Shown here piece after piece: positions 6,132 to 61,701 of a stretch of DNA of 64,000 nucleotides. Made by a program: the position numbers and the translations under genes. Below the pieces are notes generated by a model that made no database searches, was not told where the DNA came from, and saw only the letters and a list, made by a program, of their open reading frames with translations. How positions within the stretch are numbered: the first letter of the stretch is position 1; every line of letters starts with the position of its first letter. The stretch is from an uncultured Spirochaetota bacterium (GTDB taxonomy: Bacteria; Spirochaetota; Brevinematia; Brevinematales; JAOACQ01), in contig CAVYGN010000002.1 of NCBI GenBank assembly GCA_963768055.1, forward strand, positions 768,001 to 832,000. The letters run 5' to 3'.

Positions 6132-6132
6132 A

Positions 6133-6858: not shown

Positions 6859-6860
6859 AA

Positions 6861-13034: not shown

Positions 13035-16000
13035 ATGAAAAAATATTTATTTTTAGCGGTAATGACGTGTTCGGTATTATTTTTCCTCCGGCACTCTTTT
13101 GGGCTTAATCAGATACCGGGTTCCCAGAATGTATATGTCGGTTATGGAGTTAACGAACTTTCTCTGGGTTATGCGGGTATTTCCGAAATGTCCAGTATCG
13201 ATGGGAACTCATTCAACCCCGCAAGCATGGGCGATCTTAGGAGAATGGCAAACAGCCTGTCGGCAGGCGGGTTTGAAAGCGATGATTTGTTATTCAGCGC
13301 AGGTTTTTCATATCCGACGGGGATCGGAGTCCTGTCGATCAACGGCGTTTATCTCGAAGATTCGGCTTCAAATTCACTTTCATCCCTGATCGGGCTTCAA
13401 TTAAGCCTGGCCAAACCCATCACAGAAAATTTATTCTGGGGCGTCGATGTAAAATACGGTTCGGGTTCTTTATCGAATTCCTCCGATTATCAGCTTGCCG
13501 GGGATATGGGACTTATACTCAGGGAAAATACCCCGGGGACGGGCTTCGGTTTTTTTGAACCCTCATTCGGCATTGTATTAAAAAACCTGGGAAAATCGAT
13601 ACAGCTTGGCGAATATGATCCGTTCCCGGCAATGGGCGTCGGAGCCGGCGCATCATTTGATCCTGTGAAATATGATGCATATAGGTTAAGATTGATAGCC
13701 GATGCCGTAGTTCCGGTTAATCCGTTTAATGTCATTCTTGACGCCGGACTTGAAAATACATTCTTTGATTTTTTGAAGATAAGGGCGGGGTATATATTTT
13801 CAACCCCTTCCCTTGGAATATCCTACATCGGGCCTTTCCAGCTGGGTATAGCCCTGATGGGAAAAATAGCCTATAATGCCACTAATTTCAATCCTGAAAA
13901 CCTGCAGGTAAAAACTGCAGGCGAGCGCCTGGACAATTCGACGGATATTGAATTGGCATATGCGCTTCAGCAGCAGAATTTCAACGGCAAGTACGAACTT
14001 GCTCATTTTATAAATGTCAGCGTTGCATGGGGTTACTTTAGCACTGTAAAGCCGTTTGTATCCCTCAAACCCGATATTATATACATCTCGCCTAATACCG
14101 AATCCACACAGGGAAAAGTGAGATTATCGCTCGATATCAAGGATAGCGTTATTATAGAAGGTTGGGAAGCCGATATCAGGGATAAAAACGGCAATACCGT
14201 GAAAACTTTCAAGAGCCTTGATAAATTGCAGATCAGAATGCTGACCCCCGGAAAATTTTTAAGCCAGATATTCTCATCAAAACAGCAGGTTGATATTCCC
14301 GGGGATGTAGTATGGGACGGCCATGATGAAATCGGGGCAAAAGTCCCGGATGGGGAATATAATTATATTCTGCGCGCATGGGATGAAAATAACAATATTG
14401 GAGAAACCGAACCCGGAAAGCTGATAATAGATACCGTACCCCCGAAGCTGGAGCCGTCATTACCGTATCTCGTGTTCTCAATCAATAAAGACAGTTCAAA
14501 GCAGTTGTTATTTATAGATATAAAAAGTTCCGATGTCGAAAACGGTGATAAGATACATGCTGCAATAATAGATTCAAAAACCAATGAGGTGCGAACATTC
14601 GATTTTGAGAATTCATGCCCGGCCCGGATAGTCTGGGATGGACATGATGATCATAATGGTATAGTTCCTGAAGGAGAATACAGCTTTTCTGCCAGGGCAT
14701 GGGACAGGGCCGGTAATATAACATTGAAGAAGATTACAGGCATACGTCTTGTGACAAATTATGAAACAATCATGCTGAATTCAGAAGATGATGCCTTCTC
14801 TCCGAATAACGATGGTTTCAAGGATACTGTAACATTTGTCCAGAAATCGTCCAGCACCAGGGGCCTGGAGGAATGGTCGCTCAAAATTTACGATAATAAT
14901 TCAAACGTCGTAAAGGAATATAAAGGCGGCCATGACCTGCCTGAAGAAATTGTCTGGGACGGAAGGGATAAAAACAATTCAATAGTCAAGGATGGGTACT
15001 ATACATATGGCACCGGTTTGATATTCGACAGCGGAAACCATCCGATATCGGAAAAAAAAGTTGTCAGGGTTAAAACCGCCCCTCCTTTGATCGTGATAAA
15101 ACCGGAATATATGTCATTTTCCCCGAATAATACTGAAGCCCGGAACTCGATGGTATTCGATAACACGGTAGAGGGAGATGACGATGATGTTATTGATATA
15201 AAGATAATCGATCCCTCAGGCAATATTGTTTATTACAATACATACCGGAAAAAAGATTTCCCGGATAAGTTCATATGGAACGGGAAGGACAAAGATTTAG
15301 AACCCCTCCCTGAAGGCAAATATACTTATGTTGTAGAAGGGGAAGATAAGGTAGGCAATAAAGATTCAAAACAGATAACCGGGATAGTCTTGAAAACAGG
15401 GCTTGAGAAAGTTTCTGTCCAATCAGATTTAAAAGCCTTTTCGCCAAAAAACTCCGTAAGCAATAAAATAGTCTTTACACCGCTGGTTACATCGAAGGAA
15501 AACATAGTTGATTTCGAATTGTCCATCCGGGATGATAAAAACAATTTAGTGAAATCGATAAAGACAAATACATTCATGAATAAGATAGAATGGAACGGGA
15601 CTGATAATTCAAAAACATTGGCTAAAGATGGGAATTATTCATATCAATTGAGGGTTAAATATGATTATGGAAACGAATTGAATTCAGCCGCCAAAAATGT
15701 CAGGCTTCTTACGAAGGTCCCTGAGATTACAATAAAAGCAGATGATTGGATTTTTTCTCCTAACGGGGACGGTAATAAGGAAACATTTATCATCCGGCAG
15801 CATGTAGGAGAAGACCCGGAAATTTTATATAATGCCGGGATATTCGATCAGAATGGCAAGCCGGTGAGGTCTTTCAAATGGGCGGGAACGGGGCCCTCTT
15901 CAGTGCCGGCTGAACTGGTATGGGAGGGATTAGACGACAAAGGGAGCCAGGCCCCTGAAGGAATATATATGTATGAAATATCCGGTACCGACGTCGCGGG

Positions 16001-17120
16001 CAATAAAACTAGAAAAACCATCGACAGGATTAAACTGGTCAGGACTTTTGAAAAATTGCTGTTTACCAGTGATATTAAAGCCTTTTCACCGAACAATGAC
16101 GGAATAATGGATACGATTAAATTTTATCAGGTTCTTTCTTCTACTAATGACCTGCAGGCGTCCCTTTTGACAATTTATGATTCTACCGGCAATAAGGTCA
16201 GGCAATTTATTAAAAAGGGCGGCATCGATAAAGAAACAGCCTGGGATGGTAAAAACGACAAGAGCAATATTCAGCCCGACGGTTTCTATACGGCTGAGCT
16301 TGAGTGCTCCTTTGAAAGCGGCAATGACATAAAGGCGGCGATATCCAATATAATTATTGACAAAATAACTCCGGCGTATAAGCTTTCTGTAAGCCCCGAT
16401 CTTTTTACCCCCGATGGAGACGGGGAAAACGATATACTTTATATTAACCTCGAGGTCTGGGCACTGGCTGGAATAAAGAATTGGGAAATAGATATAAGTA
16501 AAAAACTTGAAAATGGCGAAAAAGGCAGATTGTTCAAAAGATTTTTCGGAACAAACGATACGGTAAAACAGATACAATGGGATGGATATAGCGATGACGG
16601 GCAGGATCTTGTCGAATCCGTCCAGGACTACATACTTGAACTTAAAGCTGAAGATAATGTCGGCAACATGCTTACCAATGTTTTCAGGGAAATACCGGTC
16701 GGGGTCTTAGTTGAAAAAACGCCCGATGGTTTAAGAATCAGGGTTTCAAGCATCCAATTCGCTTTTGACAAAGCTGATCTTATAGGGAATAGCGGAGAAA
16801 GCCTCGACAAGGTCATTTATATAATTCGCAGGATCCTTTCGGACCCTAAAAAATACGGAATTACAGACAACTATAAAATCGAGGTAAGCGGTCATACTGA
16901 CGACGTCGGCACTGATGAATATAACCAGAAATTGTCGGAAAAGAGGGCGTTCCAGGTTTATCAGTATTTCCTGATGAAAGATATCGATCCAAGGATTCTG
17001 ACATATGCCGGATACGGCAAGTCGCGTCAATATAAGGTGGTGACCCCGGATATGACGAAAGAGAAAAAGGACGAATACAGGGCACGCAACAGAAGGGTGG
17101 AGTTTTTTATAAGGAAGTGA
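13035..17120 (+). CDS. Large exported protein: N-terminal putative beta-barrel, 8 FlgD-Ig-like repeats, C-terminal OmpA peptidoglycan-binding domain
   Basis: Signal peptide; LSLGYAG...NPASMG and alternating strands; 8 FSPNxDG-like and 8 W[DNE]G motifs; SGHTDDVG...NQKLSEKRA...GYG...NRRVEF. Confidence 0.85.
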   Translation: MKKYLFLAVMTCSVLFFLRHSFGLNQIPGSQNVYVGYGVNELSLGYAGISEMSSIDGNSFNPASMGDLRRMANSLSAGGFESDDLLFSAGFSYPTGIGVLSINGVYLEDSASNSLSSLIGLQLSLAKPITENLFWGVDVKYGSGSLSNSSDYQLAGDMGLILRENTPGTGFGFFEPSFGIVLKNLGKSIQLGEYDPFPAMGVGAGASFDPVKYDAYRLRLIADAVVPVNPFNVILDAGLENTFFDFLKIRAGYIFSTPSLGISYIGPFQLGIALMGKIAYNATNFNPENLQVKTAGERLDNSTDIELAYALQQQNFNGKYELAHFINVSVAWGYFSTVKPFVSLKPDIIYISPNTESTQGKVRLSLDIKDSVIIEGWEADIRDKNGNTVKTFKSLDKLQIRMLTPGKFLSQIFSSKQQVDIPGDVVWDGHDEIGAKVPDGEYNYILRAWDENNNIGETEPGKLIIDTVPPKLEPSLPYLVFSINKDSSKQLLFIDIKSSDVENGDKIHAAIIDSKTNEVRTFDFENSCPARIVWDGHDDHNGIVPEGEYSFSARAWDRAGNITLKKITGIRLVTNYETIMLNSEDDAFSPNNDGFKDTVTFVQKSSSTRGLEEWSLKIYDNNSNVVKEYKGGHDLPEEIVWDGRDKNNSIVKDGYYTYGTGLIFDSGNHPISEKKVVRVKTAPPLIVIKPEYMSFSPNNTEARNSMVFDNTVEGDDDDVIDIKIIDPSGNIVYYNTYRKKDFPDKFIWNGKDKDLEPLPEGKYTYVVEGEDKVGNKDSKQITGIVLKTGLEKVSVQSDLKAFSPKNSVSNKIVFTPLVTSKENIVDFELSIRDDKNNLVKSIKTNTFMNKIEWNGTDNSKTLAKDGNYSYQLRVKYDYGNELNSAAKNVRLLTKVPEITIKADDWIFSPNGDGNKETFIIRQHVGEDPEILYNAGIFDQNGKPVRSFKWAGTGPSSVPAELVWEGLDDKGSQAPEGIYMYEISGTDVAGNKTRKTIDRIKLVRTFEKLLFTSDIKAFSPNNDGIMDTIKFYQVLSSTNDLQASLLTIYDSTGNKVRQFIKKGGIDKETAWDGKNDKSNIQPDGFYTAELECSFESGNDIKAAISNIIIDKITPAYKLSVSPDLFTPDGDGENDILYINLEVWALAGIKNWEIDISKKLENGEKGRLFKRFFGTNDTVKQIQWDGYSDDGQDLVESVQDYILELKAEDNVGNMLTNVFREIPVGVLVEKTPDGLRIRVSSIQFAFDKADLIGNSGESLDKVIYIIRRILSDPKKYGITDNYKIEVSGHTDDVGTDEYNQKLSEKRAFQVYQYFLMKDIDPRILTYAGYGKSRQYKVVTPDMTKEKKDEYRARNRRVEFFIRK

Positions 17121-36453: not shown

Positions 36454-36482
36454 AATTTAAGAGGAATGGAGGTTTTTGTCAA
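36454..36482 (-). promoter_or_regulatory. Sigma-70-like promoter of rpsB
   Basis: TTGACA-N17-TAAATT; the -35 overlaps the upstream stop codon. Confidence 0.6.
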
Positions 36483-37732
36483 ATTTTATCAGCGTATCTT
36501 CCATATAATCTGTAAAATAGACTGAAATTATTATTTTTTACTGAATTAAGAAAAAAGGGAATAGACGCATCAGCGCCTTGCATAAACGAATAAAAATCTA
36601 AAATCTCTGAAAATCCTCCCTCTGTATTACCGGTAATTTCATACGGAGAAGCTATTACAAATTTTGTTCCGTTTTCAAGAAGGTTTAAAATAACCCCGTC
36701 GGTCTCAAGTCCTGTAAAACAGCAATTCAGAAAAGCCATATGAACTCTTTTTGAATAAAATACACGGTCTGTTAATACTTTATTGAGCTCAATCATCCCT
36801 TTACCGCTATGTATTTCCCCATGCCCGGAAAAATGGAAATAGCATGAATTCCTGACCTCATATTTACAGCCCTGATATGCTTCATCGCTGATCGCTTCAA
36901 TATCGAAACGGTTTTCCAGGAGTTTTTTAAGGGAGTTTATTTCCCCTGTGTTATCAATTTTGTTTGAAAAAATTATTGTAAAATTTTGGGTTAAATGGGC
37001 AGGTTCCCTTACAGGCATTGGCAGAAGATACTGTACAATGGTACGGTTTAGAATTTCAAGGGGCAGATAAATTCCCTTTCCGTTTATATAAACGTCAAGG
37101 AGTGAATAATCGTTCCTGCCGCAATTCTCAGGAGCAAGGGGGATGCCGAGTTTAATAAATATATTTTCAATCATTTCCCTGATTATTGTTTTTATTTCAT
37201 CGATTTGTGAAATATTTGAATTTTTTATGGCTGTATCGATTTCCTTTCGCAGGCCGTGAAGTTCTTCCTGTAAACCGATCCATTTTTCCCATTGTAAATA
37301 GTTTTCAATAAAAATTTCATCCTGAGTATTGTGATAAATGAAACGGATATAAGATCCTTTTTTTATTCTGATATTAAGTACCGGAGGCCTTGCCCTGGCA
37401 AGGGACGAACCGATAGAGATCCATCCCAAGGCCGTATTTTCGGGAACGATATGGTATCTTTTCTGAGAGAAAAGGGATTCATAAACGCCCCGGCTGATTG
37501 CCGTTTTATTATATTCTGAAAAACGTATCGAAAGTTTTTTTGAAGGGCCTCCTGAAGCTCCCGTGCGGGATGTTTCAAGGCCAAATACTCTAAATTTTGT
37601 AACCTGTTCATTATCGAAGACGTGGATTAAATCGCCGGTTTTTATGAATTTTTCAAGATTCCCTGCCAGTCCATTGTCTATAAAAATATAGCGTCCGAGA
37701 ATTTTAATTTCCTGGGAACGTATACAGATCAT
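36479..37732 (-). CDS. Hypothetical protein with C-terminal CHAT (caspase-like) domain
   Basis: LPLEIL; YFHFSGHG; AFLNCCFTG; LLENGTKFVIASPYEI; FYSFM; YRLYG. Confidence 0.7.
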   Translation of the reverse strand: MICIRSQEIKILGRYIFIDNGLAGNLEKFIKTGDLIHVFDNEQVTKFRVFGLETSRTGASGGPSKKLSIRFSEYNKTAISRGVYESLFSQKRYHIVPENTALGWISIGSSLARARPPVLNIRIKKGSYIRFIYHNTQDEIFIENYLQWEKWIGLQEELHGLRKEIDTAIKNSNISQIDEIKTIIREMIENIFIKLGIPLAPENCGRNDYSLLDVYINGKGIYLPLEILNRTIVQYLLPMPVREPAHLTQNFTIIFSNKIDNTGEINSLKKLLENRFDIEAISDEAYQGCKYEVRNSCYFHFSGHGEIHSGKGMIELNKVLTDRVFYSKRVHMAFLNCCFTGLETDGVILNLLENGTKFVIASPYEITGNTEGGFSEILDFYSFMQGADASIPFFLNSVKNNNFSLFYRLYGRYADKI

Positions 37733-37737
37733 AAATT

Positions 37738-38622
37738 CTACGGCGACTTTACAACAATTACCTGGGATTCGTTGATTTTCTTGACGGATTTCGGATTTGC
37801 AAAAAGCCTAGCCGCATCCTGATTGTTCAGAACAAAACTTGTATTCATTTTTCCGGTAAGGCTGAACGGTATAGTGTAAAAAACCCTTTCCCCGGACCTG
37901 GGGGAGATAAAAGCATTGTAAAGGCTTGTGGTATATTCACAAATACCGAGTTTTTCCAGGTACGATTTGTCAACCGTTTCGGGTCCATAAAGCAGAATGC
38001 CGTCCTCATCAAATATCCTCATCTGAATACTCGGATTGAATTCCTTGTATGAGAGCGTATCGATTATCAAACCGTCGAAATATTCTGTATCTTTGGTTTC
38101 CGGCTGCACATAATTGGTTAATTCCTTTTTTTCCAGATCGCGGAAAAAAACAGCGGCGATACCGTTCTTGCCGAAAATCGAAAGTTCGGCTATTCCGTAT
38201 ACTGTTTTCTCTTTTTCAATCATCGGGTAATAAACCGCTTTATCTGCATAAGATATTATTTCATACCTGACATCGTTTTTTATTGAATAGTAATCTTTAA
38301 GCAGGTATAAATCGGAAACCCTTACATAACCCATCGCCTTTATAAGGTTTTGGCGAAGTTCATCCCTTACCTGGGATTCGTAATCATTAATAATCTTCCC
38401 GATATTAGGGCTGTCTTCTTTTATATCGATTGAAATTTCTGTTCTTACAATACCGGCCGTCCAGTCGATGATGCTGTTATAATCCGGGATATTTTCAACA
38501 AGGTCGCTTTTTGAATTACTTGCGCTATTCCATGTTTCTGTAGCCGTATTTTGAGCATAATAAGAAGAATTAAAAATGAATAAAAACCCGGTTAAAAAAA
38601 GTGAAAAAAATAAACGATTCAA
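37738..38622 (-). CDS. Exported protein, LPP20-like C-terminal domain
   Basis: TTG start after GGGAG; signal peptide; IDWTAG; FDGLIIDT...FNPSIQMRIFDEDGILLYGPETVD...GICEY. Confidence 0.65.
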   Translation of the reverse strand: MNRLFFSLFLTGFLFIFNSSYYAQNTATETWNSASNSKSDLVENIPDYNSIIDWTAGIVRTEISIDIKEDSPNIGKIINDYESQVRDELRQNLIKAMGYVRVSDLYLLKDYYSIKNDVRYEIISYADKAVYYPMIEKEKTVYGIAELSIFGKNGIAAVFFRDLEKKELTNYVQPETKDTEYFDGLIIDTLSYKEFNPSIQMRIFDEDGILLYGPETVDKSYLEKLGICEYTTSLYNAFISPRSGERVFYTIPFSLTGKMNTSFVLNNQDAARLFANPKSVKKINESQVIVVKSP

Positions 38623-38644
38623 TTATAAACTCCCGATCTTATTA

Positions 38645-38671
38645 TTATCGGCAGCGCGCCAGGCATCCTGA
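38645..38671 (-). promoter_or_regulatory. Sigma-28 (FliA)-like promoter
   Basis: TCAG-N15-GCCGATAA on the minus strand, 22 nt before the TTG start. Confidence 0.65.
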
Positions 38672-38673
38672 GG

Positions 38674-38958
38674 TTACCAGAATTTGATATCGAATCCGTT
38701 AAATTCGTTATTATCCGTATCCTCGATCTTATAATCGATGTTTTCTACTCTCGACCCTGTCGGGCCTTTTCTCAGGTAAAGCAGAAAATCGTTTATCTGA
38801 TTTTCATCCCCGACAGCGACAGTTTTAACATCCCCGGCCGGAAGATTGGCAACCCAGCCTGTGACGCCTATCATTTCCGCCTTATCAAGAACATAATATC
38901 GGAAACCGACGCCCTGCACACGCCCGGATATCACTGCCTTGATTTTTTTTAACGGCAT
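38674..38958 (-). CDS. acyP: Acylphosphatase
   Basis: SGRVQGVGFR; GWVAN; GP..SRVE. Confidence 0.93.
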   Translation of the reverse strand: MPLKKIKAVISGRVQGVGFRYYVLDKAEMIGVTGWVANLPAGDVKTVAVGDENQINDFLLYLRKGPTGSRVENIDYKIEDTDNNEFNGFDIKFW

Positions 38959-38977
38959 CTGTCATATCCTTTAGTTA

Positions 38978-39589
38978 TCATCGCGTAATGAGTATGACGC
39001 ATCCTTCGGAAAAGAAATTCGGGAATAACATGCCCGTTTTATGTTTATTACCCCGTATATAAACAATTTTTTTTAATTTTATCCCCCGTTTTTTGCAGAA
39101 TTCCTTGAAATCCGCCAGGGTCAGGAGATGGATATTGGGAGTGTTGTACCAGTCATGCGGCAGGGTTTTGGATTTAGGCATTCTTCCGCCCATAAACAGT
39201 TTGAGCCTTACCTGATAAAATCCAAAATTCGGAAAACTTACAATTCCGTAGTTGCCGATCCTGAGGATTTCATCAATCAGGACGTCCGGAAAAGTGAGTT
39301 CCTGGATTGTCTGGCTAAGGATCACATAGTCATAAGCATGGTCCCTGATATTATCGAATTTTTCATTGAGGTCGTGTTCAATTACAGGTATGCCTTTTTC
39401 TATGCAGCTGATTATCCGTTTATGGTCGATTTCAATGCCCATTCCCTTGACTGATTTATTGTGAATCAGGTAATCGAGAAGAGTCCCTTCACCGCATCCC
39501 AGATCGAGAACGCTTGAACCCTTTAATATCCAATTGGCGATAATTGTCAGGTCGGCCCTGTTTTCGAGAAGCGACAGGAGCTTTTTCAT
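38978..39589 (-). CDS. metW: Methionine biosynthesis protein MetW
   Basis: RADL; VLDLGCGEG; DYVILSQTIQ; IVSFPNFG; GRMP...WYNTPNIH. Confidence 0.93.
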   Translation of the reverse strand: MKKLLSLLENRADLTIIANWILKGSSVLDLGCGEGTLLDYLIHNKSVKGMGIEIDHKRIISCIEKGIPVIEHDLNEKFDNIRDHAYDYVILSQTIQELTFPDVLIDEILRIGNYGIVSFPNFGFYQVRLKLFMGGRMPKSKTLPHDWYNTPNIHLLTLADFKEFCKKRGIKLKKIVYIRGNKHKTGMLFPNFFSEGCVILITR

Positions 39590-39590
39590 G

Positions 39591-40775
39591 CTACTCGCCT
39601 CCTTTTCTTATTCCAGCCTGGGATGCATAATACTTATCATGAGTCGCCCTGAGATAATGGTTGATAATTTCAGCCTGTGTATCTACTTCGATCAGGAACG
39701 CGTCATGACCGTACGAGGTTTCGATATTTATATAGGTGACGTCTTTTTTCTGCTTCATTAACGCGTCGACGATTTCCTTGGATTGATAGGGAGGAAAAAG
39801 CCAGTCTGAAGTAAATGAAAGAATAAGGGTCCTCGACTTGATATCCTTAAAAGCCTTATCAAGTTTGCCACCGCCATATGACTCAGCTGCGTCAAAGTAA
39901 TCCATTGCTTTTGTTACATAAAGATAACTGTTCGCGTCAAAACGTTCGACAAATTTATTGCCCTGGTGGTCGAGATAGCTTTCAACCTGGAATTCGTTGG
40001 AAAAATCATAGCTGAAAACATCTTTGTCCTGTAGCCTTCTGCCGAATTTTTTATGCATTGATTCGTCGCTTAGATAAGTAATATGACCGATCATCCTTGC
40101 GATAGAAACACCCTCCGCAGGCAGCTCGTCTCCGTAGTAATTACCGTTTTTCCATCGGCTGTCGGATATTATGGCTTTCCTTCCTACGGCATTGAATGCT
40201 ATACTTTGAGCTGATGAACGGCTTGTCGCGGCTATAATAATACATGATACAGGAATATCCGGATACCTGAGAATCCATTCCAGGGCCTGCATTCCGCCCA
40301 TTGATCCCCCGATCACGTTAAGGAGCTTTTTTATTCCAAGATGGTCGATAAGGCGTTTCTGCACTTTAACAAGGTCCCCGATAGTGACCACAGGGAAGCT
40401 TATACCATATGGTTTTCCTGTATCCGGATCTATGCTGGAAGGGCCTGTGGTGCCCATGCATCCGCCTAAAATATTTGAGCATATTACGAAATACTTATCG
40501 GTATCCAGGGCTTTGCCCGGTCCTATAAAATTTTCCCACCAGCCTGGATTATGGCCCTGGGATTTATGAAATCCTGCGGCATGGGCGCTGCCGGAAAGAG
40601 CATGACAGACCAGAACCGCATTGGACTTATCCTCATTCAAAAACCCGTAAGTTTCATATGCTACCGTTATCGGGCCGAATCTCCGCCCCGAATCGAGTTC
40701 GATAAAATTATCTCCTGTATCGGAAAGATCAAAATATCCGGTTTCAACGATGCCGACGCTTTTTTTATCCTCTAT
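39591..40775 (-). CDS. metX: Homoserine O-acyltransferase MetX; proposed non-canonical ATA start at 40775
   Basis: SVGIVET...LDSG..FGPITVAYETYG lies upstream of the track's TTG (40640); CHALSG; GGSMGGM; ARMIGHITYLS; DWLFP; GHDAFL. Confidence 0.92.
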   Translation of the reverse strand: MEDKKSVGIVETGYFDLSDTGDNFIELDSGRRFGPITVAYETYGFLNEDKSNAVLVCHALSGSAHAAGFHKSQGHNPGWWENFIGPGKALDTDKYFVICSNILGGCMGTTGPSSIDPDTGKPYGISFPVVTIGDLVKVQKRLIDHLGIKKLLNVIGGSMGGMQALEWILRYPDIPVSCIIIAATSRSSAQSIAFNAVGRKAIISDSRWKNGNYYGDELPAEGVSIARMIGHITYLSDESMHKKFGRRLQDKDVFSYDFSNEFQVESYLDHQGNKFVERFDANSYLYVTKAMDYFDAAESYGGGKLDKAFKDIKSRTLILSFTSDWLFPPYQSKEIVDALMKQKKDVTYINIETSYGHDAFLIEVDTQAEIINHYLRATHDKYYASQAGIRKGGE

Positions 40776-40793
40776 CTCCAGCCTCCGGAAAAG

Positions 40794-42584
40794 TTATTTA
40801 TTCGCTTTATATTCGACAGTCTTAATGCTTAATTCCGCCAGCTGCTTATCAGTTACTTTCGAGGGAGTATCCGACATCATATCCTGCCCCTTCTGGGTCT
40901 TGGGGAAGGCTATCACATCACGGATATTCGAGAGTCCCTGAAATTCCATTACCAGGCGGTCAAGGCCGAAAGCGAGTCCTCCATGAGGAGGAGCTCCGTA
41001 ACTCAATGCTTCCAGAAGAAAGCCGAATTTTATTTTAGCGTCTTCTTCTGAAATATTAAGTATATTGAAAATTTTTTTCTGGACTTCCGGGTTGTGGATC
41101 CTGATGCTTCCTCCGCCAAGTTCGATGCCGTTCAAAACCAGGTCATAGGCATCGGAACGGACCTTTCCCGGTTCCTTTTCCAGAAGTTCGAGGTCGTCGA
41201 CCTTCGGTGCAGTAAAAGGGTGGTGAACCGAATCCCAGCGGTTTTCATCAGTATTCCAGTCGAACATTGGAAAATCCACAATCCATACGAATTCCATTTT
41301 ATTTTTATCCCGCAGTGAAAATCTGTCACCGATATTAAGGCGCAGGTTGGCAATGGAATCGTAAACTACTTTTTTATTGACATCGGCTATGAAAAGCAGT
41401 GCGAAATCCTCCTTTGCGCCTGTAATTTTAATAAGGGCGTCCTGGATTTCCTGTGAAAAATATTTAACGATGTTGGATTCAAGCTTTCCGCCTTTGACCC
41501 TCATCCAGGCCATCCCCTTTGAGCCGTATTTGCCGACAAAAGAGATGAGGTCGTCCATATCCTTTCTCGAAAGCCGGCTTCCTTCGGGGACAGGGAGGCA
41601 TTTAACCATTCCTCCCGCCTGGGCCTGGGTCTTGAAAACTGAAAATTCGCAGTTTTTTACCGTTTCCGTTACATCCACGATCTCCAGGCCGAAACGGAGA
41701 TCGGGCCTGTCTATACCATATTTATCGATCGCCTCTTTGTAAGTGATCCTCCTGATAGGAGTTTTAATTTTGATCCTGTAATTTTCAAGCAGTATCCTTG
41801 CTATCATATTTTCCATCAGTGTAATTATATCGTCTTCGGTGATAAACGACATTTCGATATCGATCTGGGTGAATTCAAGCTGCCGGTCCGCCCGGAGGTC
41901 TTCGTCCCTGAAACACTTTGCGATCTGGTAATACCTGTCTATGCCGCCGATCATTAATATCTGCTTGTAGATCTGCGGCGATTGGGGCAGGGCGTAAAAA
42001 TTGCCGGGGGCGAGCCTTGAAGGGACTAGGAAATCCCTTGCTCCTTCCGGAGTAGACTTGTTCAATATAGGCGTTTCAACTTCCAGGAAACCGTTTTCAT
42101 CCATATAGTTCCTGACCGTATTGACAATTTTATGCCTCATAAAAAGATTATTGTACATCTGCTCTCTCCGGATGTCGAGATACCTGTATTTAAGCCTGAC
42201 CTCCTCGCTGATTTCATCCTGGTCGATCTGAAAGGGAGGGGTTTTCGACTTGTTGAGAATATCGATCCTGTCGACCTTAACCTCGTATCTTCCCGTCGGG
42301 ATCTTCGGATTTATATTTTCTTCCGTCCTTAACAGGACTATGCCGCTTGCCGATAATACGTCCTCGCTCCTGGTTTTTTTCGCGATTTCATGAGCGTCGG
42401 GATTGGTCTGCGGGTCGAATACAAGCTGGATGATCCCGCTCCTGTCCCGTACGTCCAGGAAAGTGAGTCCTCCATGATCCCTGTAATTCTGCACCCAGCC
42501 GTTTATTACAACCCTTTTGCCTACAAGCTTGTCCGAGTTTACCTGACCGCAGTACAGCGTCCGCTGCTGTTCCCTGGTAATCAT
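40794..42584 (-). CDS. aspS: Aspartate--tRNA ligase (probably non-discriminating Asp/Asn type)
   Basis: RDHGG; TPEGARDF; LPQSPQ; CFRDEDLRADRQ; HHPFT; GAPPHGGLAFGLDR. Confidence 0.97.
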   Translation of the reverse strand: MITREQQRTLYCGQVNSDKLVGKRVVINGWVQNYRDHGGLTFLDVRDRSGIIQLVFDPQTNPDAHEIAKKTRSEDVLSASGIVLLRTEENINPKIPTGRYEVKVDRIDILNKSKTPPFQIDQDEISEEVRLKYRYLDIRREQMYNNLFMRHKIVNTVRNYMDENGFLEVETPILNKSTPEGARDFLVPSRLAPGNFYALPQSPQIYKQILMIGGIDRYYQIAKCFRDEDLRADRQLEFTQIDIEMSFITEDDIITLMENMIARILLENYRIKIKTPIRRITYKEAIDKYGIDRPDLRFGLEIVDVTETVKNCEFSVFKTQAQAGGMVKCLPVPEGSRLSRKDMDDLISFVGKYGSKGMAWMRVKGGKLESNIVKYFSQEIQDALIKITGAKEDFALLFIADVNKKVVYDSIANLRLNIGDRFSLRDKNKMEFVWIVDFPMFDWNTDENRWDSVHHPFTAPKVDDLELLEKEPGKVRSDAYDLVLNGIELGGGSIRIHNPEVQKKIFNILNISEEDAKIKFGFLLEALSYGAPPHGGLAFGLDRLVMEFQGLSNIRDVIAFPKTQKGQDMMSDTPSKVTDKQLAELSIKTVEYKANK

Positions 42585-42617
42585 AATTCCTCCGATGCCA
42601 ATTGAATAAACCTACAT

Positions 42618-42646
42618 ATTTTAAAGTGAATTGAAAAATATTACAA
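42618..42646 (-). promoter_or_regulatory. Sigma-70-like promoter of aspS
   Basis: TTGTAA-N17-TAAAAT on the minus strand. Confidence 0.55.
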
Positions 42647-42674
42647 GGCGATAGGCCGAGAGAGGAATTGCTGT

Positions 42675-42997
42675 TTAATCCGAAATTCTATAAACCAATA
42701 TATGAATGCTTTCATTTGTATAAATACCATCTTTGCCCCGCCGGGTCATAAAAATCACATAATCATCTTTTGACAATTTTATAGTAACTGATTGGCCCTT
42801 AACCTTTTTTCCGCATTTTTAGACAGGTTTTGAAATTCGTTGTCGCCAAGCTGGTAATCATAATTTATCGACTCGTAATTTGACGGGCCAAATATTATGT
42901 CCCTGATCGTATAGATTGTCCGGATATGAATTTGTCAAGGTATCCGTCTCGCCCTGCCGATGCCTCTGCTTATGCCGGTTATTAATACCGTTTTCAT
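42675..42997 (-). pseudogene. SDR oxidoreductase N-terminal remnant followed by degraded coding fragments
   Basis: MKTVLITGISRGIGRA (TGxxxGxG) at 42997-42950, then a stop and short frame-shifted protein-like fragments ending at TAA near 42675. Confidence 0.6.
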
Positions 42998-43813
42998 GGA
43001 TATGCCCACTTCATGTATTGCTGCCCCGACCGCCGTGGCATAGTCGGCATTTTCCGGTATGTGGAAATTCACATTATAGATTTTAGAGATCCCGTCGAAA
43101 ATTATCCTCGCCTGTGGTATAAGCGCAAGCCTTCCCGTCAATACGATATCCCTGTTATCGGTTTGTTTGGAAGCGAACATCGCTATTACCCCGATCGACT
43201 GGAAAACGAGATTGAAAATTCCAAGGGCGAAATCGCTTTTAACGGCCTTGTCGCTAGTCTTGCCGAAATTGGAAGCCGTAGCGTTTGACGGCAGATCCCC
43301 TATCTTCAAATTTGAAATGTCGCTTATAGCCAGGTCGATATTCCCGAGATCGCCATCCCGGGCCATTTCTATGATATTGTTAATATCGGTGCTGCCCAGG
43401 ATGCACTTCGAAAGTCCCAGGAGTGTCCCTCCTCCCACTCCCGTGCCGCCCAGGTGGGTCGTTTTTCCTCCATCGGCCTTTACTATTGCAGTTCCTGTTC
43501 CGAGGCTCACTACGACAGCTTTTTTCATATGTGACAGATAAAGCCCTCCCAGCCCTATCGCCTGGAACTCGTCAACCCTTGATACAGGTATTCCTATAAT
43601 AGTCGATTTGATAAATGAAGCTCCCGCCCCTGTAATTACTATTTTTTTAATATCATTTACCGGAATGTGGTCGGAATCTATAAGCTTCCCGAGGGCCCCG
43701 GAGGCCGACGTTAAAGGATCGCTGGCGCTGACTGTAAAAAAACTCATGATTTTATCGTTTATCAGGCTGACAATCTTTGTGGTTGTTCCCCCGATATCTA
43801 TTCCAATGATCAT
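42935..43813 (-). CDS. coaW: Type II pantothenate kinase (Fumble family)
   Basis: IGIDIGGTTTK; ITGAG; VDEFQAIGLG; SLGTGT; GGTGVGGGTLLGL; TASNFGK; probable ATG 43813 after GGGAGG. Confidence 0.88.
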   Translation of the reverse strand: MIIGIDIGGTTTKIVSLINDKIMSFFTVSASDPLTSASGALGKLIDSDHIPVNDIKKIVITGAGASFIKSTIIGIPVSRVDEFQAIGLGGLYLSHMKKAVVVSLGTGTAIVKADGGKTTHLGGTGVGGGTLLGLSKCILGSTDINNIIEMARDGDLGNIDLAISDISNLKIGDLPSNATASNFGKTSDKAVKSDFALGIFNLVFQSIGVIAMFASKQTDNRDIVLTGRLALIPQARIIFDGISKIYNVNFHIPENADYATAVGAAIHEVGISMKTVLITGISRGIGRARRIP

Positions 43814-43916
43814 GCCGCCTCCCATTAGTGTGGCCTTGCGGAATATTTACATTAGGGCACGCGAATAAATGTAAATGATAATTATAATTATAAGATGATT
43901 TAACTTATATTCCAAA

Positions 43917-44498
43917 TCATTTGCGGTTGAGCACCGCATAAGCCCAAAAAAGGCCGGTTACCTCGATATTAAGATCGTATTTCATTATTATTTTTTTAAA
44001 GGCTTTATAATGCGAACCCGTCGTGATTATATCGTCGATAATATATAAATTTCTTATTTTTTTGTTTTTAAATCCTTCCCATTGGTAATTATCGATTATT
44101 TCATCTATAATACGGGGCCCTCCCATATGGCTGGCGCGCCGGCTTTTTATCAACGAGACCGGTTGTTCTATGACGATATTATTTCTTAATTCTTTTAATC
44201 TTAAAAGGGTTTTTTCGAGCCTGTCGTCGTAAAGCCCGTCGATTTTGCATTTTGACGGCGGTACAAAAGAAAGGTAATATGCTTCCTTGCCGGCAAAAAA
44301 CAATGAAAGTTCTTCGGCGAATATGTTTATTGAAGATATTTTATGCTTTTCCAGGTCCGGTCTTGTTTTCACGTTATGCTTGAAATTTTTTATAAGCTGA
44401 TTGGTTTCACAGAACAAAAACCCCCTTCTTGGATAGTATTCTCTTCTATAAAAACATTCGTCATTAGAAGGGTCTATATAGCGCGGGAAATTTCTCAT
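43917..44498 (-). CDS. Stand-alone phosphoribosyltransferase-fold protein (ComF-like)
   Basis: NQLIKNFK; FVPPSK; YDDRL; SH; PRPP-binding loop YIIDDIITTGSH. Confidence 0.8.
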   Translation of the reverse strand: MRNFPRYIDPSNDECFYRREYYPRRGFLFCETNQLIKNFKHNVKTRPDLEKHKISSINIFAEELSLFFAGKEAYYLSFVPPSKCKIDGLYDDRLEKTLLRLKELRNNIVIEQPVSLIKSRRASHMGGPRIIDEIIDNYQWEGFKNKKIRNLYIIDDIITTGSHYKAFKKIIMKYDLNIEVTGLFWAYAVLNRK

Positions 44499-44727
44499 GC
44501 CGGGTGTAATTCTTATCCAGTCCTTCAGAAATGTCTCCTTTCGAATAGTTTATTATCATTATATTATTGTTATAATGGCAATATTCTAATTCTGTCTGGA
44601 TTTTTATTCAAATTCCGGTAAAATTGATTAACTTTTCATCCGATAACATGTTACAGAATTAAATTAACATAAAATTAATCCCCGATTCACCAAAAACTAA
44701 TATAATTGAAAAAAAGATCATAAAATT

Positions 44728-44756
44728 TTGCAAAAAAGGCAAAGGAGTGATATACT
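44728..44756 (+). promoter_or_regulatory. rRNA operon promoter
   Basis: TTGCAA-N17-TATACT with extended TG and an A/T-rich UP-like region. Confidence 0.75.
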
Positions 44757-44941
44757 ACTGACCGCCTCCGAGAAGGAAGCGAAAGGTAATAGAACTATGG
44801 TGAGAGTCCAGTGCGAGTCCTACTCGGTCACCGAGGGTTAAAGCTCGGTGATGGAGGAAGACAAACAATTTCTTAAGAACCCCGCGCCGGCTTGCCGGAG
44901 CGGGGAGATGAAACAGATCAAACAAGAAATGATAATAAAAT

Positions 44942-46473
<1,532 letters not shown>

Positions 46474-46723
46474 TTTAGGGAGAAAAAAAGTCACTGGACT
46501 CTCATCATTTATATAAAAATAAAGGATGAATATAAAAAAGGTATCTTGATTTGTTTAACGCAGATCGAGAACAATTCGCCTGTCAACGTATATAAATCGT
46601 TGAGGTTCATCTGAGCTCATTGGGGTAATGAGCTCACGCCGAACTTTTGCGAGGCGTAGAGCGAATTACACCGAAGTTAATGAGCCAAGCCGAGCAAAGT
46701 GAGGCATAAGGCGAATTAACCGA

Positions 46724-46797
46724 GGGTGTATAGCTCAGTTGGTTAGAGCGCAGCCCTGATAAGGCTGAGGTCGGTGGTTCGAAACCACCTACACCCA
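46724..46797 (+). tRNA. tRNA-Ile (GAT)
   Basis: GGGTGTA...TACACCC-A; anticodon arm CAGCC-CTGATAA-GGCTG; GTTCGAA; CCA not encoded. Confidence 0.97.
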
Positions 46798-46848
46798 ACC
46801 CCTCACAAGGTGAGGAGCGTACTTGATCGCATATGCGCTCAAGCACGG

Positions 46849-46921
46849 GGGGGTGTAGCTCAGCTGGGAGAGCGCCTGCCTTGCAAGCAGGATGTCAGGG
46901 GTTCGATTCCCCTCATCTCCA
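46849..46921 (+). tRNA. tRNA-Ala (TGC)
   Basis: GGGGGTG...CATCTCC-A; CCTGC-CTTGCAA-GCAGG; GTTCGAT; CCA not encoded. Confidence 0.97.
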
Positions 46922-46993
46922 GGCAAGAAACAAAGAAAAGAAAAGAATAGGAAAGAAAAAGAAAGAAAAGCGGTTATAGGAATAAGGTAAGAA

Positions 46994-49886
<2,893 letters not shown>

Positions 49887-49917
49887 TTCTTTCCTTTATT
49901 CTTATATCGTTTTATTT

Positions 49918-50023
49918 GCTCTCGACCATAGCGCAGGTGTTACACCCGGTCCCATTCCGAACCCGGAAGTTAAGCCCTGCGTCGCCGATGATACTCGTTT
50001 CGGGGAAAGTAGGTGTCGAGAGC
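49918..50023 (+). rRNA. rrf: 5S rRNA (short, about 106 nt)
   Basis: Helix I GCTCTCGAC/GTCGAGAGC; CCCATTCCGAAC; GAAGTTAAG; GCCGATGATACT; GAAAGTAGG. Confidence 0.95.
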
Positions 50024-50058
50024 TTTTTTTATTTATAAGGGTTATGCAAGGGTTTGTT

Positions 50059-58195: not shown

Positions 58196-59449
58196 TCAAT
58201 GCCTTGATTTTTTTTTAAGAACTTTCTGATACCACCTTGCGAGATCAATGCATAGTCCGGGCAGAACGACAGCCGGAGTGACATTGTTGTATCTGATTTT
58301 ATTTTCGATGAAACTTATTCGTGCCGCAAATTCCCTGAGTTCAGAAGTATAAACTGACTGGATGACAGGTCTTAGAATATTTTTGTAATCTTCATCAATA
58401 AACCCGGAAAGATCGGTTTTTCTCAGGTACTCCTGGCGCATAAGATGTGCGTTCCTGATAAACTCAATGAGTTCGTTGAAAAAATGGACCGGTGCTTTAA
58501 TGTTTTCATCGGAGACAACTTTATCAATAAAAGAAAAAACCGAATTTCCCTGCTGGATTACCGGTGCTACCGAAGTAAAAAACTCAATAACTTTTTTCTT
58601 CCTTTCTTCATGAAATCTGAAAAGGTCATCCTCCATCAGGTCGGACGTCGAGAAATAATCTCCGGCGCTTATTGCCTCCGTTCCCAGGATTTCACTGACC
58701 AGAGCAGGGGTCAGAGGGTTGAAATGTATAATCATGCTTCTGGATAAAATTGTCGGAAGTATCGTATTGCTTGAATTTGCGGATAAAATTACTAAATTAC
58801 CAGCTGGAGGTTCCTCAAAGAGTTTTAAGCTCGCATTTTGAGTTTCTTCAGTTGCGTTCTCAAAATTTCCTATCAAGGTTATTTTATGACCGGACTCTGA
58901 TTTTATTCCATTGAATTCGATCGCTCTCCTGATGAAATCTATAGGTATTCTAAGTTTTTTTGAAAGCTCATCGGAAACCAGGATAAGGTTCTCGGAAAAA
59001 GCCTTTGAGTTTTCAATCAAATTAAAATAGGATCCGCTATTGATGATACCTGACAATTCGTTCCTGAAATCATTGACAGAATAAGCCGTACTGTCACCGG
59101 AGATTTTTTTCAATTTTATATTTGTGGTTTCACCGAGGGAGATAGCTGTTGAAAGCCTTCCAAGAAGGTAATTTAAATAACAGGGGAATGCCGATCTTAT
59201 CTTTTCGCCTGAGATATTTTTAAGAAAATAACGTGTTTTAACTGAAAACGAATCGTTCCTATAGAATATAAAATCCATTGACAAAAAAGGGTCTTGCAAA
59301 AGGATCTTTCCGGCCATGCGGACTGCGGCTGTAAATTTGCCGCATCCCCGGCCGCCCAGCAGTATTACAGTCCTTCCAAAAATTTTCTCATCGATAATCC
59401 TGGATATTACTGCCTGGGCCCTTGATTGCCCTTGTAGTGAACCCTGCAT
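58196..59449 (-). CDS. holB: DNA polymerase III delta'-like clamp-loader subunit
   Basis: LQGQ; GGRGCGKFT; NASLKLFEEPP; ILPTILSRS..IHFNPL; long internal insertion. Confidence 0.75.
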   Translation of the reverse strand: MQGSLQGQSRAQAVISRIIDEKIFGRTVILLGGRGCGKFTAAVRMAGKILLQDPFLSMDFIFYRNDSFSVKTRYFLKNISGEKIRSAFPCYLNYLLGRLSTAISLGETTNIKLKKISGDSTAYSVNDFRNELSGIINSGSYFNLIENSKAFSENLILVSDELSKKLRIPIDFIRRAIEFNGIKSESGHKITLIGNFENATEETQNASLKLFEEPPAGNLVILSANSSNTILPTILSRSMIIHFNPLTPALVSEILGTEAISAGDYFSTSDLMEDDLFRFHEERKKKVIEFFTSVAPVIQQGNSVFSFIDKVVSDENIKAPVHFFNELIEFIRNAHLMRQEYLRKTDLSGFIDEDYKNILRPVIQSVYTSELREFAARISFIENKIRYNNVTPAVVLPGLCIDLARWYQKVLKKKSRH

Positions 59450-61701
59450 TACGACGTTCCTCTCTTGATATCGATAAGATTAAGCCTTATTTCCTCATTC
59501 CCCTGGAATTTATTAATTTCCGGGGTTACAACCAGATCGAAATGCACATCTGAATTAACGATCATTTTGATTTTTTTTGACCAGTTCCAGCCTGTAACGG
59601 TTAAAGATTTCCCGTTTTTCTGAATAGTCATAAGAATATGTTCTCCGTTTCTGCCTATAACCCTGTTCGATACTATTTTTACATCTTTCATCAGCAGGCG
59701 GGGTATTTCATTTCCGTTTCCTGTCGGTTCGATAACATTTTCCAGATATCTTATCATATTGAGATTCAGCTCCTCAGCGTCATCGATTACAGCATCAATT
59801 AAAAGTTCTCTTCTTAAATCGTCTGGATTGAGGAGGTCCATATATTCTATTATCCTTTCCCTGAAAGGGCCTATGTTATCGGTTTTAATCGTAAACCCGC
59901 CCGCAGATTTATGGCCGCCGTACTGAATAACAAGGTTATTCAAAGAGTCGAGCATTTTGATGACGTCGAAACCGTTTGGAGCGCGTATGGAACCTGTTGA
60001 ATATTCCCTGTCTATAGCTACGATGATGACGGGGATACTGTAAAGATTAGAGAAGCGATTGGCGAGAAGCCCTGTCGTTCCTTTTGCAAACTTATCGGAC
60101 GATACAAAAAATATCCTGTCTGCAGCATTTGTATTTTTTTCAAGTAGAGTATTGATGATCTCTATGCCGTCATCGACAATATTTTTTCTTTCATTGTCTT
60201 TTGATATAATGTCTTTTACCAGCTCTTCCGATTCTTTTATCTTATTGGATATGAGAAGTTCGACACTGAAACTTGCATCGCCAACTCTTCCCGGAGAATT
60301 CAGAATCGGCGAAACGCTCCAGCTTATGTCCCTGCTTTTGACATGTTCGATATTCATATTGATGTCCCTGAGCAGCGTAATGAGGCCGATGGAGGAATGA
60401 GGTAATAAACGCAGTCCGTTTTTGACAATAGTCCTGTTCTCATCAATCAGAGGCATAATATCGGCGATAGTGCCTATAGCGGCAAGGGGGAGATATTCCT
60501 CATACAGTTCCAGGAGTTTCGTGTTTCTGCTGATTATAAGCCTTCTGTAAACTTCCGAACAGATATAACAATCATAGAGGCTTCGGTGCAGCTTTCCCGT
60601 TTCAGGATATAGACCCAGGGATTTCGCGACAGTTCCGAGCTTATGATCATTTATTTTTTTTATCATTACTCTTGCCATTTTTAGAGTGTCTTCAACAGGG
60701 TTATAAATGCAAACTTTCATGTTTTTTTTAAGTTCTCTCTCCAGAAATTTCAAGTCGAATTCGATAACGTTATGGCCTACAAGTCTGCAGCCGTCGATAA
60801 AATCTATAAACATTCCGAGAGCTTCCTGTATTGATCTGCCCTCTTTTTCAAGCATTTCATTTGTGATACATGTTAATTCTGTTATTTCATTCGTTATTTT
60901 GAGCGAGGGTTTGATAAGGGTTTGAAATTCCGCAAGTTTAATACCATTTTTTACCTTGATCGCCCCGATTTCTATTATCTCGTCCTTCGATGGGTTTAAA
61001 CCTGTAGTTTCAATATCGAAAAAAACGATTTCAATATTGTATGTTTCGCTAAGAGTCATTTTTTCAGCCATGCCGCAAACAAGCTTAAAGGCTACTGATG
61101 CACCGCTTAAAAAAGCGAAGGGATAACTGTCATGAGATATTTTTGGATTTATCACGGCGTAGGCCTCGGGTATTTTATCCCTGGCTTCATGGTGATCGGT
61201 TATTATCACATCGATTCCGATTGTCCGGGCGTATTCTATTTCAGGGATCGATGTTATTCCACAATCCACGGTTATGATCAGGCTGAAATCATTCAGTGCA
61301 GCCCAGCCGATTACATCCTTTGAAATCCCGTAATTTTCAGCGCCTTCAGGGACTCTATAACCTACGTTGGCATCCAGCCTTTGGAGATATTTGTATAAAA
61401 TAGCTGTGGCAGTCACTCCGTCAGCGTCCTTATCCCCGAAGATGAGAATACCCTGCTTCTCTCTTACCGCAAGTTCTATCCTTTCAATGGCTTTAACCAT
61501 GTCTTTAAAAAAAAACGGGGAATAAAGATTTAGAGGCGATGGTTTAATATAATGCTGGATCTTAGCGGGTGTATCAATACCTCGGCCCAGAAGAATGGTT
61601 GTTATCAATTCCGGGTAATGAAAATACTCGGAAATCTCATTCAACTTTTTTAAATTACGATCGGCAATCAGCCAGATCCTGTCCTTGTTTTGAAAATCCA
61701 T
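59449..61701 (-). CDS. recJ: ssDNA exonuclease RecJ with inserted DEDDh exonuclease domain
   Basis: GDKDADG; TVDCG; TDHH; IGTIAD; NSPGR; GSIR; GGHKSAGG; insert FDIETTGL...GHN..FD...HRSLYD. Confidence 0.93.
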   Translation of the reverse strand: MDFQNKDRIWLIADRNLKKLNEISEYFHYPELITTILLGRGIDTPAKIQHYIKPSPLNLYSPFFFKDMVKAIERIELAVREKQGILIFGDKDADGVTATAILYKYLQRLDANVGYRVPEGAENYGISKDVIGWAALNDFSLIITVDCGITSIPEIEYARTIGIDVIITDHHEARDKIPEAYAVINPKISHDSYPFAFLSGASVAFKLVCGMAEKMTLSETYNIEIVFFDIETTGLNPSKDEIIEIGAIKVKNGIKLAEFQTLIKPSLKITNEITELTCITNEMLEKEGRSIQEALGMFIDFIDGCRLVGHNVIEFDLKFLERELKKNMKVCIYNPVEDTLKMARVMIKKINDHKLGTVAKSLGLYPETGKLHRSLYDCYICSEVYRRLIISRNTKLLELYEEYLPLAAIGTIADIMPLIDENRTIVKNGLRLLPHSSIGLITLLRDINMNIEHVKSRDISWSVSPILNSPGRVGDASFSVELLISNKIKESEELVKDIISKDNERKNIVDDGIEIINTLLEKNTNAADRIFFVSSDKFAKGTTGLLANRFSNLYSIPVIIVAIDREYSTGSIRAPNGFDVIKMLDSLNNLVIQYGGHKSAGGFTIKTDNIGPFRERIIEYMDLLNPDDLRRELLIDAVIDDAEELNLNMIRYLENVIEPTGNGNEIPRLLMKDVKIVSNRVIGRNGEHILMTIQKNGKSLTVTGWNWSKKIKMIVNSDVHFDLVVTPEINKFQGNEEIRLNLIDIKRGTS

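Follow-up and report, generated by a model that had tools for sequence, protein, structure and literature searches.

Where can translation of a metX gene begin when its reading frame offers no ATG, GTG or TTG ahead of the conserved N-terminus of the protein? This question is raised by the junction between aspS (aspartate--tRNA ligase) and metX (homoserine O-acyltransferase) in a 64,000-nucleotide (nt) stretch of contig CAVYGN010000002.1 from an uncultured Spirochaetota bacterium. This whole stretch is called the window, and coordinates count from its first letter. The closest MetX proteins and loci carry Brevinematales or Brevinematia labels. On the minus strand, aspS (40794..42584, 596 amino acids (aa), ATG start, NCBIfam NF001750 at 838.5 bits) ends with the TAA at 40796-40794, after which the sequence reads CTT TTC CGG AGG CTG GAG ATA GAG GAT AAA AAA AGC GTC GGC ATC GTT GAA ACC. 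The metX frame is the aspS frame continued across this single TAA. It stays open from 40793 to the TAG at 39593-39591, and none of the 51 open codons that precede the TTG at 40640 is ATG, GTG or TTG. A first-pass annotation of this DNA had pointed out both the shared frame and the missing canonical start; the sequence and the list of open reading frames (ORFs) confirm them, and all of its coordinates and codons at the junction were correct on re-reading.

The explanation that we favour, with our confidence in it evenly poised, is a lineage-specific loss of the metX start codon, after which weak initiation led by a Shine-Dalgarno (SD) sequence at the in-frame ATA 40775 would still give full-length MetX at a low level. 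Initiation at AUA, its level and its sufficiency for methionine synthesis are what we infer from the junction. Read from this ATA (40773..40775), metX occupies 39591..40775 on the minus strand and has 394 codons plus the stop. The gene is probably a tolerated lineage-specific hypomorph and not a conserved regulatory design.

The ATA appears to be the best candidate for the metX initiation codon by its SD, its spacing and its duplex energy. The SD core GGAGG (40782..40786, minus strand) lies within the 18 nt from the aspS stop to the ATA. It is perfectly complementary to the tail of the window's own 16S gene, which ends GGATCACCTCCTTA and holds CCUCC, so the anti-SD is canonical. For comparison, 49 window genes were used, left from 55 ORFs after removal of four ORFs in the rRNA operon, an antisense ORF (40551-40832) and metX; the start of each was taken as the first canonical codon of its ORF and is unverified. 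Forty of them start with ATG, six with TTG and three with GTG. GGAGG is found within 25 nt upstream of 13 of the 49, with spacings of 3-11 nt and a median of 6, and its density in the window is 0.00098 per nt per strand. From the GGAGG at 40786-40782, the spacing is 6 nt to the ATA, 0 nt to an in-frame CTG (40779..40781), which is a further near-cognate candidate, and 9 nt to the GAG codon at 40770..40772. The first-pass reading that GGAGG sits 6 nt before the ATA and that the CTG is too close was thus right, and 6 nt is the median of the window. At the ATA site, the predicted pairing of the SD with the 16S tail has an energy of -10.4 kcal/mol, and only 10 of 48 window genes have stronger pairing (one of the 49 has no 20 nt of upstream sequence). 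RNA folding in the 120 nt round the metX start site is not unusual (z +1.22).

Use of another near-cognate start is very unlikely. The CTG at 40781 would give 396 aa, and the ATC at 40751 would give 386 aa, from the I of VGIVET. Both codons are in frame, residues 1-8 are predicted to be disordered, and two homologues (P0011, P0034) begin late, with MGIVET or MGLVKT; a protein from I9 might still fold. However, the CTG touches the SD, and its spacing of 0 is outside the 3-11 nt range of the 13 window genes with GGAGG. The ATC has a pairing of -3.6 kcal/mol and no GAGG closer than 17 nt. The pairing at TTG 40640 is -3.7 kcal/mol.

This TTG (40638..40640, residue 46 counted from the ATA) is the first canonical in-frame metX start, and it yields a 349-aa protein that is truncated at the N-terminus. 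The metX product matches NCBIfam NF001209 with 528 bits (cut-off 331) over residues 23-379 of 394. The acetyl-specific model (470, cut-off 500) and the succinyl-specific model (495, cut-off 560) both stay below their cut-offs and thus assign no acyl donor. S158 (GGSMGG), D324 and H357 are invariant in an alignment of 24 MetX sequences; we take them to be the catalytic triad, in which the Ser of GxSxG is the nucleophile and Asp and His are its partners. Nine invariant columns of the same alignment come before residue 46 (G8, V10, L27, G30, P35, Y40, E41, Y43 and G44). The N-terminal strands (VGIV...LDSG...VAYETYG) are encoded in frame and are kept only with initiation upstream of 40751. An AlphaFold2 model made from the 24-sequence alignment has a mean predicted local distance difference test score (pLDDT) of 75.7 and a predicted template modelling score (pTM) of 0.81. 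In this model, residues 1-8 have a pLDDT below 50, and residues 11-50 have 77-88, with strands at 13-16 and 37-43. Only two of the 120 listed MetX homologues are shorter than 370 aa, and the predicted N-termini of relatives start 0-5 residues before VGIV. The invariant columns, the modelled strands and the few short homologues thus suggest that the product of TTG 40640 would be without conserved structure, and that the first few residues may be free to vary. The first-pass claim that this start removes core strands agrees with the alignment and the model, by which the loss would include nine invariant residues and the strands predicted at 13-16 and 37-43.

Several features of the junction were compared with chance. 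For the pattern GGAGG-N6-ATA, the expected count in the window is 2.2 and the observed count is four, which 22 of 100 shuffles match or exceed; it is not enriched, and the count, being within chance, was dropped as evidence. By arithmetic from the window codon frequencies, the chance of a 51-codon run free of ATG, GTG and TTG is about 12%, and the shared frame of metX and aspS is a one-in-three event. The part beyond chance is the position of the start-free gap, which spans nine invariant columns of the 24-sequence MetX alignment.

The metX start was then compared with those of 80 related loci. Of these, 79 have a canonical in-frame start that keeps residues 27-40, and the remaining one (L046) is truncated at the end of its contig; in the window there is no such start. 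In only one of the 80 does aspS lie directly upstream of metX, and this is the locus of the nearest genome (L001, 84% identity). The L001 junction reads TAG CC GGAGG AATAGAGACA GTG AAT GAT AAA AGC GTC, and metX there is out of frame with aspS. The L001 metX starts with GTG 10 nt past GGAGG (L001:2983-3000), where the median for window genes is 6. Its aspS is 89.6% identical to the window copy over 596 codons, and both end at the same aligned column.

Six of the metX loci are labelled Brevinematales. Their starts are GTG (L001), ATG (L002), TTG (L003 and L004), GTG (L008) and ATG (L010), so that four of the six are not ATG. Judged from these sequences, the metX start codon is one that turns over within the clade. 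In L010, the ATG lies 13 nt past GGAGG (L010:2973-2994), a long spacer against the window median of 6. In L008 (2956-3010), a metagenome-assembled genome, GTG at the Val of SVGLV is the sole canonical in-frame start, and nothing that resembles an SD precedes it. Just upstream of this GTG the frame still encodes the conserved T-D-S, and an in-frame ATT lies 4 nt past AAGGA. This locus is ambiguous: its start may have moved recently, or AUU may serve as a second case of a near-cognate start. The closest protein (P0001, 86%) begins with VGIVDVK, which points to GTG initiation at this Val unless the call is partial. Among the homologues listed, none was identical to the window MetX.

Could the start codon itself be a means of control? 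The first-pass annotation had considered control linked to methionine or to initiation fidelity, and it had proposed an alignment of orthologous loci as a check. That alignment does not bear the idea out, because the start is not conserved: L001 has GTG, the five other Brevinematales loci have ATG, TTG or GTG, and 79 of the 80 loci are canonical. Its statement that no S-adenosylmethionine (SAM) riboswitch or T-box is present agrees with the Rfam scans, which at the gathering score found only rRNA and tRNA in the whole window and, with the threshold relaxed to E<=1 over 38500-44900, nothing but an ALIL match at chance level (E 0.61). In the six Brevinematales loci, Rfam gave no riboswitch or T-box either. 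Nothing supports a conserved regulatory mechanism at the metX start. It is quite improbable that AUA has been fixed and selected, with the methionine flux of Brevinematales set at initiation by weak or near-cognate metX starts. If so, the window would be the extreme case, and AUA use would depend on initiation stringency (initiation factor 3 (IF3) and the supply of formylmethionyl-tRNA (fMet-tRNA)). The six loci are consistent with such selection, with GTG, two TTG, the SD-less GTG or possibly AUU of L008, one ATG, and the ATG with the 13-nt spacer of L010.

Which codon was lost? One or two substitutions would have removed a canonical start, whichever alignment holds. In the MAFFT DNA alignment, ATA/GAG of the window stand opposite ACA/GTG of L001. 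In the proteins, the closest relatives begin with MNDNSVGIV, MEDKTVGIV and MADKSVGIV, compared with (I)EDKKSVGIV in the window, and Met1 of the closest relatives falls on the ATA or on the codon after it. Residues 4-363 of the Leptospira MetX structure 2pl5_A align to residues 4-376 of the window protein, so the ATA is colinear with residue 1. Three ancestral codons may be considered. The first would be a GTG that became GAG at 40772-40770, as in the ungapped DNA alignment, where this GAG is opposite the L001 GTG start. The second would be an ATG or GTG that became ATA, together with an AAA insertion in the run of A, as the pattern M-x-D-K-S-V suggests. The third would be a GTG start at the Val codon as in L008 and P0034, where the window has GTC. 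The protein pattern (MNDNSV, MEDKTV and MADKSV against IEDKKSV) seems to fit better with the ATA as the old start and an added AAA. By our reading of the sequence, a run of seven A lies at 40760..40766 (minus strand) within codons 4-6 (GAT AAA AAA AGC), and compared with the M-x-D-K-S-V relatives it may hold a 3-nt expansion. An indel in this run that restores a start was rejected, since no ATG, GTG or TTG is present in any of the three frames from the aspS stop to 40766-40760.

Apart from its start, metX is intact. There is no internal stop in its 394 codons. The ratio of nonsynonymous to synonymous differences (pN/pS) against L001 is 0.116 for metX (379 codons, synonymous sites saturated), 0.083 for aspS and 0.172 for metW. 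Thus, metX has been under purifying selection for nearly all of its divergence from L001. None of the marks of a pseudogene (frameshift, internal stop, relaxed constraint) was found, and the loss of the start codon is the sole lesion. Nevertheless, a very recent inactivation would leave the same pN/pS picture. In such a recent loss of function, the start would have been mutated, no useful MetX would be made, and methionine would be taken up or made by another route. The window is the sole locus of the 81 without a canonical start, and near-cognate starts yield just 1-2% of AUG in Escherichia coli (10.1101/063800). We nevertheless consider a recent loss unlikely. The 394 codons are intact with the invariant residues kept, the pN/pS value shows constraint over almost all of the divergence, the strong SD is still at the ideal spacing, and metW is intact. 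By analogy with published cases, some translation would be expected from an SD plus AUA.

A single base separates ATA from ATG, and a base-call or assembly error, or a minority variant, would make A 40773 a G and the true codon ATG. The locus would then be entirely ordinary (GGAGG, 6 nt, ATG), and the closest relatives have M at or beside the position of the ATA. This explanation is rather doubtful. No split genes or truncated profile matches were noticed among the window genes scanned (6, 7 and 37 per scan, from the list of 49). The contig holds a complete rRNA operon, a hint that the assembly is good and that a wrong base at any one given position would be unlikely. Moreover, L001 shows that the 5' end of metX is truly variable between species.

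The position of metX behind aspS brings in two further explanations. According to the first, ribosomes that leave aspS would be held by the SD and restart at the AUA, so that MetX would follow the translation of AspS. The aspS stop is 18 nt upstream of the ATA with the SD between them, and a terminating ribosome would open a weak hairpin at 40791-40775 (minus strand, seven pairs, loop AGG), which takes in part of the SD and the first A of the ATA. Unfolding and scanning models of this kind are described in a review (PMC12548453). However, in E. coli and Haloferax this coupling is reported to be almost lost once the distance is about 20 nt (PMC10666635). The hairpin (-6 kcal/mol) is matched by 26 of 200 shuffles, is not significant and is absent from L001, and aspS precedes metX in just one of the 80 related loci. 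Therefore, re-initiation after aspS, which the first-pass annotation had put forward, fares poorly against the 18-nt gap, and we see only a slight chance that it explains the locus. The hairpin over the SD was discarded as a coupling device and remains a minor point.

According to the second, read-through of the aspS TAA would give an AspS-MetX fusion that supplies the MetX activity. Only one stop codon interrupts the frame that the two genes share, and the base after the TAA is C. As a fourth base after a stop codon, C is comparatively weak. Against this, the shared frame is a one-in-three coincidence that L001 does not have, the aspS ends of the two genomes align to one position, and among the stops of the 49 window genes TAA is the most frequent (26 TAA, 16 TGA and 7 TAG). 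An AspS domain was found in none of the 120 listed longer MetX-containing proteins (219 at E<=0.001), which is weak evidence. The fusion idea of the first-pass annotation is thus extremely improbable. The partners in the listed longer MetX proteins are MetW, Cys/Met pyridoxal phosphate (PLP) enzymes, homoserine dehydrogenase and major facilitator superfamily (MFS) transporters. In other lineages, MetX and MetW are commonly fused in a single chain of about 600-750 aa (P0067, P0085, P0086, P0091, P0092, P0096, P0106 and P0110), with fusions also in P0121-P0127. The metX-metW pair, which has a 1-nt gap in the window, is therefore sometimes one gene.

Initiation at the AUA after loss of the start codon could proceed as follows. 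One or two point changes at the 5' end of metX would have removed the canonical start and left the other needs of expression in place. No terminator-like site was found between aspS and metX on the minus strand, and thus co-transcription is likely; lying 18 nt behind aspS, metX would most likely be transcribed together with aspS and metW. The gap would present a full GGAGG core, then the 6-nt spacer typical of this genome, and then the in-frame AUA at the place of Met1 in relatives. A 30S subunit would bind the SD de novo, and the initiator tRNA would pair with the AUA despite the third-base mismatch. Full-length 394-aa MetX would be made at a small fraction of the AUG rate. metW (38978..39589, minus strand, 203 aa, TIGR02081 at 239 bits) would be independent of the metX start, with an SD and an ATG of its own: its ATG sits one base past the metX stop, and its GGAGG is 8 nt upstream, in the 3' end of metX.

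Published cases are consistent with such low-level initiation. In Staphylococcus aureus, the AUA starts of infC, ccpN and citZ were mapped by retapamulin profiling (Ribo-RET), all with extended SDs, and the output of AUA was about 10% of the AUG level, with ccpN reaching up to 30% in rich medium (PMC13009471). In E. coli reporters, AUA, AUC, AUU and CUG yield 1-2% of AUG (10.1101/063800). When the start of phage T4 rIIB was changed from AUG to AUA, about 85% of translation was lost, and HB-3 hydrolase with AUA had 7.5% output (PMC5499595). Weaker start codons tend to come with stronger SDs (PMC5622118).

Several points weigh against initiation at the AUA. The ATA is not conserved, with ACA or GTG opposite it in L001, depending on the alignment, and MAFFT puts the Met of relatives opposite GAG and not opposite ATA. 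There is no sign of selection maintaining the ATA, which also favours a recent loss of function. With ATA, ATT, ATC and CTG at 11.7% of codons together, chance could well place a near-cognate codon at about the right spacing. The SD has only a 5-bp core, unlike the extended SDs of the S. aureus cases, and the weak hairpin covers part of it. Finally, a base-call error or a very recent inactivating mutation would equally leave a codon that differs from ATG by one base.

The interest of the locus lies mainly in annotation, and no new mechanism is opened by it. A gene caller that allows only ATG, GTG and TTG would report a 349-aa MetX without its conserved N-terminal strands, or a pseudogene, and such miscalling would lead to the genome being wrongly scored for methionine prototrophy. 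If the AUA start is real, it would be a natural example from an unstudied spirochaete order and would join the short list of bacterial AUA starts. It would also indicate that a biosynthetic gene can outlast the loss of its start codon through SD-led near-cognate initiation. This is the kind of intermediate expected as start codons migrate, as seen at the 5' end of metX in this clade.

The window also contains other features. The acylphosphatase gene comes next after metW. Between it and rpsB lie two ORFs on the minus strand (36479-37732, 417 aa; 37738-38622, 294 aa) with no NCBIfam match; the 294-aa ORF has no Pfam match either (the 417-aa ORF was outside that Pfam scan), and the 417-aa ORF has 25 open codons upstream of its first ATG with no SD there. 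A complete rRNA operon (44942-50024, plus strand; 16S, tRNA-Ile-GAT, tRNA-Ala-TGC, 23S, 5S) is divergent from the panK-aspS-metX-metW block. The GC skew flips sign near 24-28 kb and again near 44 kb of the window. At 59449-61701 (minus strand), a 750-aa RecJ has its profile match interrupted at about residues 223-395 by a DnaQ/DEDD-type 3'-5' exonuclease domain, and this insert would join 5'-3' and 3'-5' exonucleases in one protein. The 1361-aa protein at 13035-17120 (plus strand) has repeated FlgD-like or type IX secretion system (T9SS)-type immunoglobulin (Ig)-like segments and a C-terminal OmpA-like peptidoglycan-binding domain, and its best match is the Leptospira adhesin family Lsa66, under the cut-off of that family. 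Three genes at 5196-9014 (plus strand) resemble the gliding-motility ATP-binding cassette (ABC) transporter GldA/GldF/GldG of Bacteroidetes, all under the equivalog cut-offs.

How does this metX compare with known systems? In the literature on metX start codons, judged from the listing, no paper on a non-canonical metX start was found, and nothing on translation initiation was among the matches listed for Brevinematales genomes. The homoserine O-acetyltransferase MetX of Leptospira interrogans (PDB 2pl5) belongs to the same family (E 6e-125) and is colinear from residue 4. As in the metX-metW pair, the window metX has metW directly after it, but it lacks a canonical start and follows aspS without an upstream region of its own. 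Termination-reinitiation pairs resemble aspS-metX in being co-directional with a short gap and an SD between stop and restart; such pairs are reported to need a -4/-1 overlap, whereas the aspS-metX gap is 18 nt (PMC10666635, PMC12548453).

The AUU of pcnB is one of the conserved near-cognate starts with a regulatory role. Others are those of infC (AUU in E. coli, AUA in S. aureus), ccpN (AUA) and cvfC1 (AUU) (PMC13009471, PMC5499595). Like metX, infC, ccpN and cvfC1 have a near-cognate AUN codon and a good SD, and no canonical alternative that keeps the N-terminus. However, these starts are shared between species and serve IF3 autoregulation or metabolic sensing, while the nearest relative of the window metX has GTG. 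The T4 rIIB mutant and the HB-3 hydrolase are also similar, in that a start-codon transition left a weakened working gene (about 15% and 7.5% of AUG; PMC5499595). They are laboratory mutants or constructs in E. coli, whereas metX is a natural chromosomal gene of an unstudied clade. By analogy, the metX case seems most like citZ (citrate synthase) of S. aureus NCTC 8325, with a lineage-specific AUA, a metabolic gene and a good SD that has been kept. The AUA of citZ is limited to the NCTC 8325 lineage, and it lowers output to about a tenth of AUG (PMC13009471). The two differ in that the citZ start was mapped by retapamulin profiling and measured with reporters and the metX start is predicted from sequence, and in that the S. 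aureus sites have extended SD pairing and metX a 5-bp core (PMC13009471). Both are metabolic housekeeping genes with an SD-supported AUA that is found in one lineage only.

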